A program made the translations under genes and the position numbers. The notes beneath the pieces were generated by a model. That model had not been told where the DNA came from. It did no database searches and saw nothing but the letters and a program-made list of their open reading frames with translations. Shown here piece after piece: positions 4,449 through 63,920 of a stretch of DNA of 64,000 nt (position 1 is its first letter; every line of letters starts with the position of its first letter). Source of the DNA: a virus (Duplodnaviria > Caudoviricetes); IMG/VR virus record IMGVR_UViG_3300009553_000023, positions 1,448-65,447 of that record, one strand, 5' to 3'.

Positions 4449-6404
4449 ATGCCTGAATTTGATCTCAAAACGGATGTCGAGAACCGCCAGGACGGAGTTA
4501 GCGGTGAGACGCGTGTAGGCCCGGGAACTCCTGAAGCTGGCGAGGGCTACCACGCAAAACTGCACAACGAAGTCAATGCGGCGGTTAATCAGGTTGGCGA
4601 AGAACTAGACTCGCTTGGCAGCGCAGCTACCAAGGCTGTAGGCGCGGCGGGCGAATCAGGGAAGGTACTCGCCTCCGATGACCCCGCGCTCGTCCGAAAC
4701 GTCAAGAGTTTCGGCGCCAAAGGCAACGGTGCCACTGATGACGCAACGCCGATCCGCGAAGCCATCAAAGCTGTCGCTGAAGCAGGCGGAGGGACGGTCT
4801 TCTTTCCTGCGGGGAACTACCGAATCGCTTCGAATGTCGCGCTCAAACCGAAGGTAGAAATAAGGGGTGCGGCGCGCGAGGCGACGCTGATCAAAGCCGA
4901 CATCGGCGTCACGGTCGCGCCGTTTACGGCGACCGAAATTGAAGACACCGTCGTGCGCGACCTGGCGATTGACGGGGACGCCGTGGTCTTCGTCGGCAAC
5001 ACCTTTGGGATTAGCTGGACTCGGTGTAAACGTGTTCGCCTCACCAACGTTCGGATCAAAAACACGTACCACATCGGCGCCTACAGTACCGAATGCACGG
5101 ACTACTCGATCGACAACTGCCTGCTTGACGAATGCGGGAAGACCTCTGCGACCCCGAACTGCATCCACGTGCTCAAGGGGACGCGCGCGAAGGTCGCCTT
5201 CAACACGGTGATCGATTGGGGCAACGGCGGGAACGGTCGTGCGGTCTACGTCTCCGAATCGCCAGAAACGCAGATCATCGGCAATAGCTTCGCCAATCCC
5301 GGTGGTGTCAACCACTCCCACATGATCTCGGTCGACGCCGCCTCGGACCGATGCGTCATCACCGACAACTTGCTGGAAAACAGCGGCTACCCCGGCGAAG
5401 GGCGCAAATGCGTCGGGATCAGCGTCATCAACTCCGATGACCCACTCATCGGCAACAACCGCATTAGGGAGCCCACGCAAGACAAAGGCTCCCTGGAGTG
5501 CATTCAGGTCGACGGAACGTCGAAGCGGGCGACGATCACGGGCAACCACTGCGAGTACGGCGATGACAATGGCATCACCGCGTGGGGCGCCGGCGAACAC
5601 GTCGTCTCGGGGAACCTGATCGAGTTCGCCGCGCACCACGGGATCTCCGTGAACTCGAACAACTGCACCGTCTCGGGCAATCTCGTCAAGAACTCTGGGC
5701 AGCACCCAGAAATCATCAACCCCTCGGGAATCGGGATTCTGAGCGGCGTAACCGGGACCGTCGTCACGGGCAATCGCTGCTTCGACGACCAGGCGACGAA
5801 GACCCAGCTCTGGGGCGTCATCGAGATCAGCACCGCCGACAAAAACACAATCCTCGGCAACGATCTGACGGGCAACAAAGAAGGTCCAGTTTCCTACGTC
5901 GGCGCCAACACGATCGTCGGCGCGAACCAAGGGATGACGCCTCGCAAGGGAGAGGTGGAGATCCACAATATTGGAGCGACCACTTTCGATGACGCTCGAG
6001 CCGCGGTGACGCCTCCACTCGGGACCCTGCTGTATCGAGAAGACACCGGCCAGCTTGCTGCCCGAACGGGGGCCAACATCTGGACGGCACTCGCGAAGGA
6101 CAAGACCGCGACGCTGACCGATGGGGCCGGGGTGACCCCGAACTTCGCTAATGGCAACCACTTCATCCTGGTTGCTAAAGGCAATCGCACTATCAACAAC
6201 GTGACCAATCGCCTGGCTGGTCAGACGATCACCATGAGCATCAAAAACGAAACCGGTGGCGCGATGACAACCACCTGGAACGAAGCCTTCAAATTGGCTG
6301 GCGCCTGGGTCGACCCCGCCAATGGCAAACGGCGAACGATCACCTTCTACTGCTATGACGGCTCGAACTGGGAAGAGCTGAGCCGCTCGGCTGCGGATAT
6401 CTAA
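4449..6404 (+). CDS. pectate-lyase-like right-handed beta-helix protein (spike/depolymerase)
   Basis: NVKSFGAKGNGATDD...GGGTVFFPAGNY Pectate_lyase_3 start; repeated I/V-x-G-N beta-helix rungs. Confidence 0.85.
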   Translation: MPEFDLKTDVENRQDGVSGETRVGPGTPEAGEGYHAKLHNEVNAAVNQVGEELDSLGSAATKAVGAAGESGKVLASDDPALVRNVKSFGAKGNGATDDATPIREAIKAVAEAGGGTVFFPAGNYRIASNVALKPKVEIRGAAREATLIKADIGVTVAPFTATEIEDTVVRDLAIDGDAVVFVGNTFGISWTRCKRVRLTNVRIKNTYHIGAYSTECTDYSIDNCLLDECGKTSATPNCIHVLKGTRAKVAFNTVIDWGNGGNGRAVYVSESPETQIIGNSFANPGGVNHSHMISVDAASDRCVITDNLLENSGYPGEGRKCVGISVINSDDPLIGNNRIREPTQDKGSLECIQVDGTSKRATITGNHCEYGDDNGITAWGAGEHVVSGNLIEFAAHHGISVNSNNCTVSGNLVKNSGQHPEIINPSGIGILSGVTGTVVTGNRCFDDQATKTQLWGVIEISTADKNTILGNDLTGNKEGPVSYVGANTIVGANQGMTPRKGEVEIHNIGATTFDDARAAVTPPLGTLLYREDTGQLAARTGANIWTALAKDKTATLTDGAGVTPNFANGNHFILVAKGNRTINNVTNRLAGQTITMSIKNETGGAMTTTWNEAFKLAGAWVDPANGKRRTITFYCYDGSNWEELSRSAADI

Positions 6405-6825: not shown

Positions 6826-7509
6826 ATGACGCCTCCAGGGGTTGCTCCGCCCGATCAACCACGCTGTGGAGCCAAGAAGCGCCAAGGCTCAGGCACCTGC
6901 ACCCAAGTGGCTGGCTGGGGCACGGATCACCCCGGCGTTGGCAAGTGCAAGCTCCACGGCGGTTGCACTGAATCCGGGCGCAAGGCAGCGCAGCGCGAAG
7001 GCGTTGAGCTGGAGGCTCAGCGCATGGTCGCCCTCGCTGGCGTCGACCAAGACCCGATCGAACACCTCCTCGAATCGCTGCACCTGGCCGCAGCCCTCGT
7101 CCGTGTCTGGGGAACGATGGTCGCCGCGATAGACGAGAAGGCTGAGGAGGAGGCAGGCGACGATGGCTTCCTGCGGGGCGAGCTCGGCTACGAGGAGATC
7201 GAAAGCGAGAAGGGCTTCACAGACACGATGGTCAGGCCGAAGGATCGGCTTATGGCGGTCGACAGCCGAGGCGAGTCACAAGTCCATCCCTACATGGTCG
7301 AGTACCAAAGAGCGCTTGAGCGCCGAGCCAAGTTCGCCAAGATGTGCCTCGACGCAGGGGTCGCAGAGCGCCAGGTCAAGGTCGTCGAATTCCAAGTCGA
7401 GCTTGCGCAGAACGCTTTGATTCGAACCCTCGACGCGATGGGCCTGGCCGGCGAGCAAAAGCAGGAGGCCCTTCGAACCTATGCTCGCGAACTCCGCGCC
7501 GGCACATGA
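6826..7509 (+). CDS. terS: terminase small subunit (HGGxSTG-like)
   Basis: CGAK..C..AGWGTDHPG.G.CKLHGG motif; directly upstream of TerL. Confidence 0.75.
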   Translation: MTPPGVAPPDQPRCGAKKRQGSGTCTQVAGWGTDHPGVGKCKLHGGCTESGRKAAQREGVELEAQRMVALAGVDQDPIEHLLESLHLAAALVRVWGTMVAAIDEKAEEEAGDDGFLRGELGYEEIESEKGFTDTMVRPKDRLMAVDSRGESQVHPYMVEYQRALERRAKFAKMCLDAGVAERQVKVVEFQVELAQNALIRTLDAMGLAGEQKQEALRTYARELRAGT

Positions 7510-9136
7510 CTTTGCTCATCTTCTAGCTGACCGCCTAGACCCACCGCATGACAGCGACCGCGAGATAGCGCTCGCGTGTGCGGCAAGCCTCTCGACCTTC
7601 ATCCGCGAGGCATGGCCGATCCTCGAGCCAGCCACGCCATTTGTGGACGGCTGGCACATCGACGTGGTTGCTGAGCACCTCGAAGCGGTCTCCCGCGGGG
7701 AACTGCTGCGGTTGATCGTCAACGTCCCGCCGCGGACCATGAAGAGCCTGACGACGGCTGTCTTTTGGCCTGCTTGGGACTGGCTAGACCACCCCTATCT
7801 GCGGTGGCTCTATGCCTCCTACGCCTCTGAACTGAGCCAGCGGGACTCGATGAAGATGCGCCGGCTGATCAAGTCGAAGGGCGGCGCCGAAGAGGGAACG
7901 ATCTTCGAGCGCATTGGCTACCAGGGCGTCCTGCGGTTGCTCTCCAGCGACCCGTGGGAACTGACCAAAGACCAGGACGCAAAGACGAAGTACGAGACCA
8001 CCGCAACGGGCTTCCGGCTCGCCACCTCTGTGGGTGCGATGGCGACGGGGGAGGGTGGAGACCGAGTGGTGGTCGACGACGCCCTCTCGGCCGAACAGGC
8101 GCGCTCAGACGCCGAACGCATCAAGGCGAACGAATGGTGGAGCGGGACCATGTCGACCCGCTTCAACAACGCTGGAGCGGCGGCAGTCATCGTCCAGCAG
8201 CGTCTCCACGAGGAAGACCTGACGGGCTACCTGCTTGAGCGTGGGGGGTGGCACCACCTCTGCCTCCCGGCCGAGTATGAGCCCAAGCACCCATTCGTCT
8301 ATCCCGACATGGTGCGGTTGCCTGATCGCGAAGAGACGGTCGAGGGCAAAGACGACGAGCCCGAAGTAGTTGTCAAGCCCGGCCGTGAACTTCCCGGTGA
8401 CCCCCGCACCGAGGAGGGCGAGCTGCTAGAGCCCGTCCGCCTCGGGCCCGCGAAGCTCGAAGAGCTGCTGCGGGAACAAGGCTCTTACGGCTATGCCGGC
8501 CAGCTTCAGCAGCGCCCAGCCCCCGCCGAAGGCGGCATGTTCAAGAAGCACTGGTGGAAACGCTTCGACGCAGAGGCGCCGCTGCCCATGTATACCCGCC
8601 TGGTCGTCTCCTGGGACATGCGCTTCAGCGACTCCCAGAAAGCCGCATCGAGCTACGTGGTGGGGCAGGTATGGGGTATCCGGGGAGCGGATCGCTATCT
8701 AGTCGGGCAGATCCGAGCGCGCCTCAGCTTCACGGAGACCCTGGCTGCGGTTGAAGCCCTAGACGAGTGGAAGCAGTGCGGGGCCAAGCTGATCGAGAAA
8801 AAGGCCAACGGCGAGGCCGTCCTCAACACGTTCAAGCACAAGATCCCCGGGCTGATCGACATCAACCCGAAAGAGAGCAAGGAGGCCCGCGCCGCTGCGG
8901 TGACTCCCGAAGTCGAGGCCGGGAACGTCTACTTGCCCCAGGGCGAATTCATCCCGGCCCCGAAGGGCTACGAACCCACGCGCACCGACGACTTCATGCA
9001 CGAGCACGCCGTCTTCCCGAACGGCTCCCACGACGACCAGGTGGACTGCCTGAGCCAGCTACTTGACTGGGTGGCGAAGTCCCCTATGACCGGGGCGCCG
9101 ATCATCCGTACTTCTCGCAGTCGGCACAAGCTGTGA
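7481..9136 (+). CDS. terL: terminase large subunit
   Basis: LIVNVPPRTMKS Walker A variant, VVVDD Walker B, QRLHEEDL, SWD and HDDQVD nuclease motifs. Confidence 0.93.
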   Translation: MLANSAPAHDFAHLLADRLDPPHDSDREIALACAASLSTFIREAWPILEPATPFVDGWHIDVVAEHLEAVSRGELLRLIVNVPPRTMKSLTTAVFWPAWDWLDHPYLRWLYASYASELSQRDSMKMRRLIKSKGGAEEGTIFERIGYQGVLRLLSSDPWELTKDQDAKTKYETTATGFRLATSVGAMATGEGGDRVVVDDALSAEQARSDAERIKANEWWSGTMSTRFNNAGAAAVIVQQRLHEEDLTGYLLERGGWHHLCLPAEYEPKHPFVYPDMVRLPDREETVEGKDDEPEVVVKPGRELPGDPRTEEGELLEPVRLGPAKLEELLREQGSYGYAGQLQQRPAPAEGGMFKKHWWKRFDAEAPLPMYTRLVVSWDMRFSDSQKAASSYVVGQVWGIRGADRYLVGQIRARLSFTETLAAVEALDEWKQCGAKLIEKKANGEAVLNTFKHKIPGLIDINPKESKEARAAAVTPEVEAGNVYLPQGEFIPAPKGYEPTRTDDFMHEHAVFPNGSHDDQVDCLSQLLDWVAKSPMTGAPIIRTSRSRHKL

Positions 9137-9165
9137 CGTCTATGGTCGTGGGTACGATTACGTCC

Positions 9166-9271
9166 TGTCCCCGACGTAGCTCAGCGATGCAGAAGCATCG
9201 GTCCCGTTGGATGGCTAGAGCGGCACAACAAACGTGGTCACGCGCCGGTTCAAGTCCGGCCGTCGGGGACA
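9166..9271 (+). ncRNA. tRNA-like RNA with expanded D-loop and degenerate anticodon arm
   Basis: Acceptor CCCGACG/CGTCGGG (extends to 11 bp), TA-GCTC...GAGC D-stem, GCCGG-TTCAAGT-CCGGC T-arm; TACGAT -10 at 9153-9158. Confidence 0.7.
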
Positions 9272-9296
9272 AGCTGTAGCCGGGGTGGGGGGTAGG

Positions 9297-9671
9297 ATGG
9301 CGGGTGTGGTCGAGTCGCACAAGATGTTCGTCCCACCCCCGAATCATCCCTTCAACGGTGCGGCATGGGCCATGCGCCAACACCAGAAGGAGCGTGAGTA
9401 CGTAGCGGAAGCTTTGCTCCGTGCGCGTCTACCCCGCCAGCTTCAGGGCCTGCTGAAGCGCCCACGTGCCTTGAAGCTTGCGCTGCGCCTCCGCCCCATG
9501 TGGAAACCGACCTTCATTCAACTTCAGGGCTACACGACGTTGGCCAGCGCTCAAGAGTTCGGCCAGGCCTGGCTCCGCGAGACGGCAGAGCGGGGCAACA
9601 CACAGGCCAACGTGGGCGTAATCTACTCCCAGGCCGACGCGAGACAAAGAGCAATAGCGGTCCATGCCTGA
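9297..9671 (+). CDS. hypothetical protein
   Basis: ATG after GGGGGGTAGG; overlaps next gene. Confidence 0.5.
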   Translation: MAGVVESHKMFVPPPNHPFNGAAWAMRQHQKEREYVAEALLRARLPRQLQGLLKRPRALKLALRLRPMWKPTFIQLQGYTTLASAQEFGQAWLRETAERGNTQANVGVIYSQADARQRAIAVHA

Positions 9672-9870
9672 CATCGAGGGCACCCTCTACGTCCCGCTCG
9701 ATTTCAAGCCCCGCATCCTCGTCGGCTGGCAAGTGAAGACGACTCGGGGCAACGACGTGAACGAGTTCGCGATCACTCGCGCCTATACCTGGCCGCACTC
9801 AGTGTCCCGCTCGTTCGACGGGCGCAAGAAGGTGGCTTTCGTGGGAGACCGCTTGGAGCCGAATGCCTGA
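9664..9870 (+). CDS. hypothetical protein
   Basis: Overlap-coupled small ORF. Confidence 0.5.
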   Translation: MPDIEGTLYVPLDFKPRILVGWQVKTTRGNDVNEFAITRAYTWPHSVSRSFDGRKKVAFVGDRLEPNA

Positions 9871-10192
9871 GACCATCCTCTACCGAGGCCCAAGCGGTGT
9901 AACCATAGACTCGCAGGCGATGCTAGATGAGCTGCGCGCCACCAATCTCCGCCTGGTCTTGGAGAGCGCGAAGGAAGACCCCGTGACCTACCGGGTAGGT
10001 GGTGAGGATCACACCGTCCGTGGTTTCGATGATGAACCCTGGCGAGCCGAGATCCACCCCGCCGACCGCAAGCAAGTCCTTGACTTCGAGGAAGGCAACG
10101 GACCGGAGAAGGTAGAGGGCGTAGCGCGCCTACTGCGCCGAGTCCTTCCTGAGCCAGCCAAGGTCGTTGCCCACATGTCCGATGTTGTCTGA
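9863..10192 (+). CDS. hypothetical protein
   Basis: Overlap-coupled; GGAG RBS. Confidence 0.55.
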   Translation: MPETILYRGPSGVTIDSQAMLDELRATNLRLVLESAKEDPVTYRVGGEDHTVRGFDDEPWRAEIHPADRKQVLDFEEGNGPEKVEGVARLLRRVLPEPAKVVAHMSDVV

Positions 10193-10337
10193 GATCTTCG
10201 CCGAGAACATGCGGGATGCCATCCGGTCCATTCAAGTGACGCCGGAGCAGGTTGTCCGCAACCTTCAGTCGTTCGCTGCCGCCGGTTTCAAGGTGGCGGA
10301 CTTCGCGGCGCTCGTCCACCGATCGCCCGAGCGCTAG
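10182..10337 (+). CDS. 51-aa hypothetical protein
   Basis: MLSEIFAENMRDAIRSIQVTPEQVV...; fills the gap, overlaps upstream gene. Confidence 0.4.
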   Translation: MLSEIFAENMRDAIRSIQVTPEQVVRNLQSFAAAGFKVADFAALVHRSPER

Positions 10338-10365
10338 CCGCAGCCCCCCACCTACCGGAGGCCCG

Positions 10366-10548
10366 ATGTCCCGCCACTCTGGGCGCACCCGCGCCAATTC
10401 ACGCGTGCGCCACCAGCGAGCTGAGCGCAAGGCTGCTCGCAGGAGGGCGAGGAAGCTAAGGGCCGATGACGGTCTCAGGCTGCTCACCAGCGCGGACCTG
10501 CGAGGCAATACGGCGATGAAGGTGCTGCGCGAGGCGATCCGTGGCTGA
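10366..10548 (+). CDS. small Arg-rich protein
   Basis: GGAGG RBS then ATG; overlaps portal start. Confidence 0.5.
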   Translation: MSRHSGRTRANSRVRHQRAERKAARRRARKLRADDGLRLLTSADLRGNTAMKVLREAIRG

Positions 10549-12685
10549 CATCGCCCCGATGGTCGTCAAGGACTCTCGGCGGCGAGCCGTTCATCGCGCC
10601 GCCTCTCCGACCTTCAATGAGCTCGGGGTCACCGGCCTCCGCCAGTACGGCGGGTTCGTGGTCGAGGAGTGGCTACGCCAGCTCTCGGGCCAGCGCGCCT
10701 CCTGGGTCTACCGGGAGATGGCCGATAACGACGCCACGGTAGGTGCGTTCCTCTTCGCGATCGAAATGCTCGCCCGTGGCGTGCCGTGGGAGGTAGAAGA
10801 GGGCTCTGAAGCTGGCGCCGCGGAATTCATCGAGGAGTGCCGCAACGACATGTCCTCCACCTGGGAGGACATCGTTTGCGAAATCCTCACCATGCTCATC
10901 TTCGGCTGGTCTTGGCATGAGGAAGTCTTCAAGAAGCGCCAGGGCCCGCAGAAGGAGTCGATCCCGACCGGTGAGGGCGAGGAGCCGCAGGAAACCCCGC
11001 CCTCTTCCCGCTACAACGACGGCAAGATCGGCTGGCGCAAGCTCCCGATTCGTGCACAGGAGACCCTCTGGCGCTGGGACTTCGACGAAACCGGTGGCGT
11101 GCAGGCGATGGAACAGGTCGCTTGGGACGGCCAAAAGCGGCTCATCCCGATCCAGAAGTCGCTCCTCTTCCGGACCAAGGCCAACAAGGGCAACCCGGAG
11201 GGTCGCTCGATCCTCCGCAACGCCTACATCGCCTGGTTCCGCAAGAAGAATGTCGAAGAGATCGAGGCGATCGGCGTCGAGCGCGATCTAGCCGGCATCC
11301 CGGTCGCCAAGCCGCCCGAGGGCTTCGATCTGTACGCGGATACTGACGAGGCCAAGAAGGTCCGTGAGGCGGCCGAGGAGATGGTCTCCACGATCCGCCG
11401 CGACGAGGACGAGGGCGTGGTGCTTCCTGGTGGGTGGGAGTTGGAACTCCTGACCACGGGCGGCTCCCGCCAGCTCGACACCAACGAGATCGTCACTCGC
11501 TACAAGCAGGACATCGCCACCTCCGTGCTGGCGGACCTGCTGCTCATCGGACAGGACAAGGTCGGCTCCTACGCAATGGTCGACGCGAAGGCCGATATCT
11601 TCGGGTCCGCGGTGGATACGTGGATGGAAGGCATTGCGGCGGTCTTCAACCGCTACGCGATCCCGCGCCTGCTTGCACTGAACGGGATGAGCCTCGACGA
11701 TCCTCCGCAGCTTCGGCCGGGGACCGTGCGGCGCGTCGACCTCGACGCCCTGGCGCAGCTCCTCGAACGCCTTGCATCCGCCGGCGCCGTCGTCTTCCCC
11801 GACAACGACCTGCTGGCCTCCATCTATCAGCGTGCTGGTCTGCCTGCACCCGCCGCAGTAGAGGCAGCCAAGGCCGACCCAGAACCCGTGAGCGCCGCGG
11901 AGAAGCGCTTGGCGGATGTCGCGACGCCCGAGCTCGGTCGCCGCTATCTCGACCTCTCAGAGCACCATGAGCGCCACCTACAGCGCGCCATGAACTCGGC
12001 GCTGCGTGCCTTCGGTGAGGAAGCGGCTCAGTCCTACGAACGGATCGTCTCTAAGGGTGCGGCCTCACCCGAAGAGCAGCTGGTCGCCGACCAGATCATG
12101 AAGGACATCGGCGCCGCTGCCTTCGCCCGGAAACTCGCCCGCTCCTACTACGGCCACTATGGCGATGTAGCGGACTCGATGATCCAAGCCTTCAAGGAGG
12201 AACTGGGGGTGTTGGGTCGCTCGATCGACCTCAACCTGACCAAGCAGGCTCGAGCGGACATCCTGCGTGAGGGCGGATTGCGGGTCGGGATGCTCGACAT
12301 CGAACGCCAGCTTCGCTCCTCCATCCACAAGGCCCTCGCCGACGCTCGCGAAGCAGGCGAGGGATGGGCGCAGGCCGCGGCCCGCATCCGTAGCTATGTC
12401 CCGTCAGGCAAGTTCGTCAAGGCTGGTACTGCCTACCGCTCGCAGTTGATTGCACGCACCGAGACCGCGAATGCCCAGCGTCAGGTCGCCCTCGCCGCCT
12501 ACAGGACACACCCTGAAGTCGAGAAGATCGAACTCCTCGACGGGTTGGTGGCTGGCTCAGACGACGAATGCATCGCCCGCAACGGGTCCGTGGTCAGCTT
12601 TGCCGAAGCCGAAAGCATGGCTAAGGACGAGCACCCGCAGGGGACCCTCCAGCTTCTTCCGGTCTTCACGCCTCGCGGCGACTAA
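10541..12685 (+). CDS. portal protein fused to C-terminal MuF/SPP1-gp7-like head morphogenesis domain
   Basis: Portal motifs GNPEGRSILRNAY, GVERDLAGIP, FNRYAIPRLLALNG; MuF-like LIARTET...CIARNG...EHPQGT. Confidence 0.85.
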   Translation: MADIAPMVVKDSRRRAVHRAASPTFNELGVTGLRQYGGFVVEEWLRQLSGQRASWVYREMADNDATVGAFLFAIEMLARGVPWEVEEGSEAGAAEFIEECRNDMSSTWEDIVCEILTMLIFGWSWHEEVFKKRQGPQKESIPTGEGEEPQETPPSSRYNDGKIGWRKLPIRAQETLWRWDFDETGGVQAMEQVAWDGQKRLIPIQKSLLFRTKANKGNPEGRSILRNAYIAWFRKKNVEEIEAIGVERDLAGIPVAKPPEGFDLYADTDEAKKVREAAEEMVSTIRRDEDEGVVLPGGWELELLTTGGSRQLDTNEIVTRYKQDIATSVLADLLLIGQDKVGSYAMVDAKADIFGSAVDTWMEGIAAVFNRYAIPRLLALNGMSLDDPPQLRPGTVRRVDLDALAQLLERLASAGAVVFPDNDLLASIYQRAGLPAPAAVEAAKADPEPVSAAEKRLADVATPELGRRYLDLSEHHERHLQRAMNSALRAFGEEAAQSYERIVSKGAASPEEQLVADQIMKDIGAAAFARKLARSYYGHYGDVADSMIQAFKEELGVLGRSIDLNLTKQARADILREGGLRVGMLDIERQLRSSIHKALADAREAGEGWAQAAARIRSYVPSGKFVKAGTAYRSQLIARTETANAQRQVALAAYRTHPEVEKIELLDGLVAGSDDECIARNGSVVSFAEAESMAKDEHPQGTLQLLPVFTPRGD

Positions 12686-63845: not shown

Positions 63846-63878
63846 GTTTCATAAGCTGCAGAGCCAGTGCGCGACACC

Positions 63879-63920
63879 CTTCTAAGCCGATGGTCGCTGG
63901 TTCGAATCCAGCCTGGGGCG
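63879..63920 (+). other. att core: 3' half of tRNA-Arg(TCT), prophage boundary
   Basis: CTTCTAA loop, GCCGA, TGGTC, GCTGG-TTCGAAT-CCAGC, CTGGGGC-G; 5' half absent. Confidence 0.85.

Follow-up and report, generated by a model that had tools for sequence, protein, structure and literature searches.

A tRNA-shaped element with a structured D-loop insert and an irregular anticodon arm at the terL stop codon of a Solirubrobacterales prophage

In a tailed-phage genome (Duplodnaviria; Caudoviricetes; IMG/VR virus record IMGVR_UViG_3300009553_000023, of which positions 1,448 to 65,447 form the window of 64,000 nucleotides analysed here), the sequence directly downstream of the terminase gene terL can be read as a tRNA cloverleaf of 106 nt at window positions 9166-9271 on the + strand, i.e. 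the strand of all features described below unless stated otherwise. Our leading explanation, to which we tentatively give a little less than an even chance, is that this element specifies a non-decoding tRNA-shaped RNA, which would be matured by the enzymes that read the upper half of tRNAs and would act through this upper half, by marking the transcript for processing and/or by sponging up binding factors. Sequence comparisons further indicate that it is a cassette inserted at the terL stop codon of a temperate Solirubrobacterales prophage, leaving a short target duplication. The interpretation as a non-decoding RNA is supported by the 20 perfect base pairs and the intact elbow found beside a broken anticodon arm, and further by the position of the D-loop insert and its hairpins, and by the recurrence of the design in other phages.

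The element is closed by an 11-bp stem (9166-9176 / 9261-9271) in which all pairs are Watson-Crick, as had been claimed in a first-pass annotation of this DNA. It comprises the standard 7-bp acceptor (9170-9176 / 9261-9267) and an extension of four pairs (9166-9169 / 9268-9271), and pair probabilities along the 5' strand (9166-9176) are 0.88-1.0, with 0.54 for the outermost pair. On the 3' strand (9261-9271), the acceptor (9261-9267) is followed by a discriminator G at 9268 and then by ACA, i.e. no CCA end is encoded, again in agreement with the first-pass annotation. U8 and A9 (9177-9178) lead into the D arm (9179-9221), where a 4-bp stem of the sequence GCTC/GAGC (9179-9182 / 9218-9221) surrounds a loop of 35 nt (9183-9217), which exceeds the usual 7-11 nt by around 26 nt. 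This loop holds hairpin 1 (9185-9200), with a perfect 6-bp stem and a 4-nt loop, and the weaker hairpin 2 (9201-9212), which has 4 bp; G18 G19 (9213-9214) lie directly 3' of the latter. The earlier description had recognized the first hairpin, and had underestimated the loop, giving about 30 nt without the second hairpin. The variable region (9239-9243) is 5 nt long, ends in C48 and belongs to a type I body, and the T arm (9244-9260) has a 5-bp stem and a 7-nt T-loop, TTCAAGT, in keeping with the consensus TTCRANY; the perfect T arm and the D stem after U8 A9 had both been predicted correctly. Compared with the tRNA consensus, the acceptor, D and T stems together show 16/16 Watson-Crick pairs, and the elbow nucleotides are complete (U8, A14, G18 G19, C48, T54-A58, C56 and G53-C61).

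Apart from the structured D-loop insert, all irregularities are located within the anticodon domain. The anticodon arm (9222-9238) is non-canonical, with three Watson-Crick pairs, one G-U and one G-G, its 7-nt loop AACAAAC (9227-9233) has A33 and reads CAA in the place of the anticodon, and nucleotide 26 is absent. The element therefore departs from tRNA consensus in the length of its D-loop and in an anticodon arm that should have five pairs and U33, the latter being near universal in elongator tRNAs. Three Watson-Crick pairs, the loop sequence and the missing U33 had been reported in the first-pass annotation, as had the overall picture of intact stems with lost decoding features, which holds for the 16 pairs and the elbow on the one hand and for the defects in the anticodon domain on the other hand. 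We regard it as very unlikely that the element is a working decoder, i.e. a phage tRNA of unusual type that functions despite a large D-loop and A33 and reads UUG or another codon, perhaps with altered framing or suppression. Purine 37 (A37) and a 7-nt anticodon loop are retained, as such a tRNA would need, but the near-universal U33 is replaced by A, the G-G mismatch and the missing nucleotide 26 accompany an arm pairing probability of 0.02-0.13, and the CAA anticodon, the short variable arm and G73 are unlike bacterial tRNA-Leu with its long variable arm and its A73. In fact, anticodon and body type together match no bacterial isoacceptor.

The region folds better than expected by chance, with z = -2.63 for 133 nt and 3/200 shuffles equally good. 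According to the partition function, the acceptor pairs with a probability of around 1.0, the T stem with 0.96-0.99 and hairpin 1 with 0.99, as compared to 0.46 in the D stem and no more than 0.02-0.13 in the anticodon stem, and the cloverleaf lies 2.7 kcal/mol above the minimum-energy fold. A strict detector, defined by a T arm, an adjoining 7-bp acceptor and U8, identified the element as the sole site in the 64-kb window and found 0 sites in 20 shuffles. ARAGORN called 0 tRNA or tmRNA (transfer-messenger RNA) genes on the window, leaving the intact element uncalled; Rfam gave no tRNA match at E<=10 over 8900-9600, and its tRNA family RF00005, run over the whole contig, matched only C1:51-123 and C1:65302-65367, not the element. 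We then removed parts of the D-loop in silico, and at its default threshold ARAGORN made 55 calls on 162 excision variants (49 Leu(caa), 4 with a four-letter anticodon and 2 Pro(tgg)). Therefore, the body of the element is tRNA-derived beyond reasonable doubt. Acceptance by ARAGORN after excision is also what a working decoder would show; however, the label 'Leu' is uninformative because the element has neither the long variable arm nor the A73 of bacterial tRNA-Leu. Since three tested defining features fail, i.e. the D-loop, the anticodon arm and the detector score, we do not file the element as a tRNA gene.

The element arrived within a segment of around 143 bp at the terL stop, flanked by a direct repeat of 12-19 nt. 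The left copy (9117-9134, core 9123-9134) forms the last codons of terL, and the right copy (9259-9277, core 9266-9277) shares sequence with both the 3' acceptor strand and the trailer and has TAG as its last three letters. In a repeat search, the cores were 11/12 identical at a spacing of 143, and local alignment of the extended copies yielded 16 matches and 1 gap, with 4/1000 shuffles scoring equally. The three differences between the copies are exactly those that give the right copy its perfect pairing with the 5' strand. In L005, the closest relative among the viral contigs (terL 73% identical), the terL stop runs straight into a conserved ribosome-binding/start block, and blastn aligns both window 9120-9133 and window 9262-9299 to L005 4548-4589; the alignment of window 9243-9299 with L005 4526-4589 has a score of 46, with 0/1000 shuffles as high. 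In the window, this block is represented by a conserved spacer, a ribosome-binding site and the ATG (9297) of an open reading frame (ORF) at 9297-9671, which together occupy 9278-9299 and stand directly after terL in L005, and the 31-nt leader of the inserted segment (9135-9165), which includes a -10-like hexamer, has no counterpart there. A soil-metagenome contig around 96% identical in terL shows homology that stops exactly at 9134 and resumes patchily from 9665. Taken together, the alignments indicate an insertion with target duplication.

Three candidate origins or parallels for parts of this segment were rejected. Descent of the T arm from the duplicated terL tail is suggested by a gapped alignment, but upstream of the repeat the similarity does not reach significance (tests with three terL tails gave p of about 0.5, 0.28 and 0.02). 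A miniature inverted-repeat transposable element or other small transposon was dismissed on account of a single copy in the contig, none in relatives, and no terminal inverted repeats inside the duplication; the 11-nt inverted repeat that is present starts 31 nt in from the left copy of the direct repeat and runs into its right copy. A T-arm-like hairpin in the spacer of L006 (z = -1.26, no Rfam match) was dropped as evidence. The absence of terminal inverted repeats next to the duplication and the single genome copy also speak against a role at the DNA level, i.e. a recombination scar, a secondary attachment site or a module-exchange boundary with an irrelevant RNA product, as does the non-significant similarity of the T arm to the terL tails. 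Such a role would fit the direct repeat that bounds the element, a mosaic junction at exactly the same place in two comparisons, and the integration of the phage into a tRNA gene via a core of around 45 nt beside a tyrosine-integrase-like ORF, tRNA genes being favoured integrase targets. However, a scar or an attachment core needs the 3' part of a tRNA only, and here the whole cloverleaf is present with its complementary 5' strand and D arm, which makes this alternative highly improbable in our view.

The spacer between terL and portal ranges from 0 nt in L114 and G041 up to around 1.4 kb, with unrelated contents; behind terL, L006, L007, L114 and G041 carry either something else or nothing. 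A six-frame search for terL relatives in 401 Solirubrobacterales genomes yielded 4 with a match, of which 3 were read: the G041 prophage has no spacer after terL, the DNA downstream of the terL match in G205 is unrelated, and ARAGORN found no tRNA in G203, where the spacer itself lay outside the reading. Peptide patterns revealed no terL relatives among the genome contigs. These differing or absent spacer contents point to the terL-portal junction as a mosaic hot spot and to the element as a lineage-specific cassette. Of note, the terL end (CTG TAG) and the ribosome-binding/start block are kept between relatives despite diverged flanking genes (window 9278-9299, L005:4566-4589 and L170 around 1610-1625), and considering that mosaic junctions fall at this block, it may act as a boundary sequence for module exchange. 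The same spacer of L005 harbours a tRNA-Ser(GCT) at L005:4970-5058, called by ARAGORN with RF00005 silent at E<=1, and tRNA genes flank terL on both sides in this contig.

Variability of this kind is also what would be expected if the element were a young relic devoid of function, i.e. an ordinary phage or host tRNA gene that landed in the variable terL-portal spacer, suffered a D-loop insertion and hits in the anticodon arm, and is now being lost. We consider this a serious possibility, although not one that we expect to be right. The element is missing from every relative examined, including the one with a terL around 96% identical, the terL-portal junction is a hot spot of mosaicism with spacers of 0 nt to around 1.4 kb and unrelated contents, decoding features are lost, standard detectors fail and no promoter is called, and the poorly scoring tRNA-Ser in the L005 spacer indicates that marginal tRNA genes occur at this junction. 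On the other hand, no defect is seen in any of the three stems (16 pairs), in the extension (4 pairs) or at the elbow. If the repeat copies have diverged by around 10% since the insertion, we estimate that neutral drift would have been expected to change the 32 stem nucleotides too. Furthermore, the insert consists of two hairpins at the sole D-loop site where extra RNA points away from the elbow, and the same site carries inserts in 32/37 other viral cases, some of them conserved families.

Searches for the parent or for homologues of the element returned generic tRNA features. Among isolated phage genomes, the 1.3-kb region matched within terL only (14 records), and the element alone gave 7 weak T-arm matches (E >= 0.4). 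A DNA search of 5 host genomes for the parent tRNA gave no match beyond 20 nt, the best being the T arm of the host tmRNA (19/20 nt, E about 0.05 per genome), a similarity that is probably generic. This host-order tmRNA, found at L152-L155 (host genomes G001 and G003-G005), is around 360 nt long, encodes the tag ADHEFALAA and has a T arm one base off in 20. A covariance model built from the single sequence of the element was run on 151 Solirubrobacterales genomes (including G067, flagged as unpublished, on which none of the conclusions depends) and matched in 26 of them; the top matches were around 80 nt long, and the 8 loci checked were ordinary tRNAs, i.e. six Thr(CGT), one Phe and one Lys.

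Evidence for a recurring design came from a scan in which viral contigs were searched for the element's D-arm and T-loop motifs, with a D-loop span of 20-40 nt. The scan returned 90 stretches with 89 matches, corresponding to 60 distinct cores apart from the window, which a simple rule sorted into 23 cases of a 5' tRNA fragment followed by a whole tRNA and 37 single tRNA-like genes with a real insert; these counts come from a simple parser, include family members that are not independent of each other, and are based on a pattern that presupposed intact D-stem and T-loop motifs. The look-alikes sit on viral contigs L024-L113, e.g. at L030:2993-3082(-), L046:1010-1104(-) and L098:6658-6768(+). 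Of the 37 insert-type cores, ARAGORN missed 28, and its calls on the remaining 9 all had a shifted reading. In 32/37 the D-loop insert lies 5' of G18 G19, following the TAGCTCAG motif, as in the window element, and the anticodon loops of these 32 are irregular for the most part. Compared with shuffles, the inserts have a median z of -1.64, with 19/37 below -1.64. Acceptor stems are 7/7 in 22/39 rows, with 14 further rows register-shifted (13 from one family and L102), and T stems are 5/5 in 37/39 rows.

The anticodon arm behaves differently. A canonical arm, defined by 5 pairs, a 7-nt loop, U33 and R37, is found in 4/37 look-alikes versus 13/23 ordinary tRNAs with the same motifs from the same loci (Fisher p = 2.5e-4, a test that overstates independence because the look-alikes are partly interrelated). 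A looser rule, counted by hand, gave 8/37 versus 19/23. Three of the four look-alikes with a canonical arm (L027, L029 and L033) have no GG at the 3' end of the insert, which can be read as an insert lying 3' of G18 G19. That four of the 37 D-loop-insert tRNAs have canonical anticodon arms, mostly with the insert 3' of G18 G19, and that RF00005 places several 95-122-nt relatives of the look-alike class above its gathering threshold, would be in line with decoding. The window element itself fits the look-alike design, with the same pattern, an acceptor of 7/7, a T stem of 5/5 and a non-canonical arm as in 33/37. This is a likeness of design rather than demonstrated common descent, with no sequence homology beyond generic tRNA motifs.

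Two families among the look-alikes illustrate how the parts vary. In a family of 13 sequences, with one locus each and several on contigs of at least 300 kb, the same site carries a hairpin with three unrelated stem sequences. In a GC-rich family of 7, the 6-nt anticodon loop is identical in 6/7 (L062 differs) and the D-loop inserts are divergent. The terL relatives of L098, a member of the latter family, are mostly Gordonia, Microbacterium and Arthrobacter phages, and the family is therefore bacterial, not archaeal. L098 harbours an odd tRNA-like cluster 1.7-4 kb downstream of terL, in which the covariance model of the element found its best non-self match (38.6 bits, same T-loop, G at position 33). 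Within this region (L098:6100-8560) we also observed a 'Leu(tag)' of 74 nt and a 'Leu(caa)' of 71 nt, both read as having no U33 in the anticodon loop, two genes with D-loop inserts, and, at L098 7148-7231, a very long anticodon arm on a gene whose acceptor and D arm resemble those of the window element. Another contig, L025, carries three tRNAs of 95-122 nt above the RF00005 gathering threshold (L025:4246-4341, 4603-4724 and 5699-5793), with 38-59 extra nucleotides in the anticodon arm, not the D-loop, too short for group I introns; since its family-mate L098 has actinophage-like terL relatives, the host of L025 is probably bacterial. One member each of two families was compared with 50,697 isolated phage genomes, giving no match for one and a T-arm match only for the other. 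A full-text literature search, to which subscription journals and supplementary files did not belong, gave no description of D-loop insertions in phage tRNAs.

Among the systems compared, the nearest to the element in design are these uncurated viral look-alikes, which share hairpin inserts, intact acceptor and T stems and mostly non-canonical anticodon arms; they differ in having one hairpin as opposed to two, and the set is defined by our own pattern. With phage tRNA genes as modelled by RF00005, the element shares the order of the arms, the 7-bp acceptor, the GCTC/GAGC D stem, the consensus T-loop, the elbow and the short variable region, as well as a location among structural genes as for many phage tRNAs, but it has a 35-nt D-loop, A33, a G-G mismatch and no N26 and goes undetected when intact. 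For the insert, the nearest published parallel is provided by archaeal tRNA introns of the bulge-helix-bulge type, which can interrupt an otherwise normal gene at non-canonical positions, the D-loop among them. However, the host of the element is bacterial, bacteria are not known to possess the tRNA splicing endonuclease, and the anticodon arm is still irregular after removal of the insert.

Non-decoding RNAs that borrow parts of the tRNA shape were also considered. YrlA does not decode and imitates the elbow and upper half of a tRNA, as is proposed for the element; it is reportedly permuted, ends in a Ro60-binding stem that replaces the anticodon stem, and is said to occur in some phages. YrlA and other Y-RNA-like RNAs usually adjoin rsr, the TROVE-domain gene. 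We rejected this identification, as the element ends in an acceptor stem and there was no Rfam Y-RNA match at E<=10 and no TROVE match in the contig. The tRNA-like domain of tmRNA likewise has an acceptor/T-arm helix without a working anticodon arm, but the element is 106 nt long as compared to around 360 nt, has a true D stem and lacks pseudoknots and G3-U70; tmRNA was rejected because the ARAGORN search found none and 106 nt leave no room for a tag reading frame. Finally, tRNA-like processing signals such as mitochondrial tRNA punctuation, the MALAT1 mascRNA and the phage T4 stable RNA species 1 share with the element a tRNA shape within a longer transcript and a possible RNase P / RNase Z cut releasing a small stable RNA, and differ from it in that the element is known here from sequence alone and is unconserved among relatives with the same operon.

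The genomic setting is that of an integrated prophage. The window belongs to a viral contig of 65.4 kb whose left end carries a full tRNA-Arg(TCT) (C1:51-123, shortly before the window begins) and whose right end carries a partial copy of its 3' portion, from the anticodon loop onward (window 63855-63920), the latter directly following a tyrosine-integrase-like ORF, with an attL/attR core of around 45 nt. Full and partial copies at the two ends beside an integrase-like ORF therefore identify the contig as a complete integrated prophage with attachment sites in tRNA-Arg(TCT). The 73-nt attachment-site tRNA has exact matches in 12 genome records, all of them (12/12) metagenome-assembled genomes of Solirubrobacterales or Conexibacteraceae, and the host is therefore a soil actinobacterium of the Solirubrobacterales. 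The gene terL (7481-9136; PHROG 38, E 3.8e-90; Pfam Terminase_6C) encodes the terminase large subunit and ends with the stop TGA at 9134-9136, and the portal gene lies at 10541-12685 (PHROG 113, E 4.6e-80; Pfam Portal_Mu). The first-pass annotation had placed the element between these two genes, which is correct, with the amendment that four small ORFs without an assigned family (9297-10548) separate it from portal.

If the element is indeed a non-decoding RNA, the following course of events can be envisaged. It would be co-transcribed with the late operon, or transcription would start from a weak -10 element that belongs to the segment itself. The RNA would fold to a tRNA shape with an intact acceptor/T-arm helix and D-loop/T-loop elbow, two extra hairpins would project from the variable 5' part of the D-loop, and the anticodon arm would be too irregular for decoding, given A33, the G-G mismatch, the missing nucleotide 26 and a Leu anticodon on a body with a short variable arm. 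Enzymes that read the upper half may then recognize it, with RNase P cutting at 9169/9170, 3' trimming after 9268 and CCA addition, and this maturation would release a stable RNA of around 100 nt and, as a by-product, cut the terL message from the downstream head-gene message. The RNA would not decode; its upper half would mark the transcript for processing, sequester host factors that recognize the acceptor ends or elbows of tRNAs, or do both.

Several observations weigh against this explanation, starting with expression. A scan for the sigma-70 consensus called no promoter around the element on the + strand, and no + strand terminator was called there either, the two terminator-like sites in 8700-9700 being on the - strand inside terL. 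The hexamer TACGAT, which the first-pass annotation had taken as a -10 box predicting a transcription start, is present at 9153-9158, but it is a match to TANNNT, a pattern common by chance, and since the sigma-70 scan calls no promoter, the promoter is left unsupported and the start is a guess from this hexamer. A look-up of window 7500-11500 in sequencing runs returned two DNA runs, one of them probably the source of the contig, and no RNA run, and the TROVE (Ro60), RtcB and CCA-adding enzyme families had no match in the prophage.

The comparative record points in the same direction. The element is a singleton, with no homologue by three patterns in 2.9 million viral contigs, among them a 28-mer of T arm plus acceptor and a pattern of the D-loop hairpin architecture (0 matches each). 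It was not found at the terL end of five relatives (L005, L006, L007, L114 and G041), nor in the whole records of 5 relatives, and this absence from every relative examined fits a young relic equally well. The 151 genomes gave no strong covariance match of element length, with nine weaker matches of 102-118 nt (19.7-26.4 bits) outside the check. As no homologue was found, neither conservation nor covariation is demonstrable. The D-loop insert alone folds at a modest z = -1.60, with 7.7% of shuffles as good; the clustering of defects in the anticodon domain involves few defects, which makes for weak statistics, and was defined after the fact; and the look-alike set was selected for intact D-stem and T-loop motifs. 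Regardless, the functional mimic proposed in the first-pass annotation retains the anatomical asymmetry and the pattern of the look-alike class in its favour, and nothing favours a decoy or a Y-RNA-like role specifically.

It is tempting to speculate beyond this single locus that phages carry a kind of RNA that has escaped description, with the element as one member, characterized by a 5'-D-loop expansion, a preserved acceptor, T arm and elbow, a deliberately non-decoding anticodon loop and a function of the upper half, although we consider so general a claim unlikely. The tRNA machinery of the host would produce and mature such RNAs, which might bind up host toxins or defence enzymes directed at the acceptor ends or elbows of tRNAs, or punctuate late transcripts, and the hairpin might be where a protein of the phage or of the host takes hold.

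At present, the tRNA genes of phages are chiefly understood as a means of codon supply or as spares against anticodon nucleases. If the element is a decaying tRNA gene after all, it would still provide a clean example of a small cassette entering the terL-portal junction with a short target duplication. If it is a tRNA-shaped RNA that keeps all but decoding, it would represent a different use of the tRNA fold by phages, and the set of 37 cores suggests that this design is a recurring one that has gone unnoticed.

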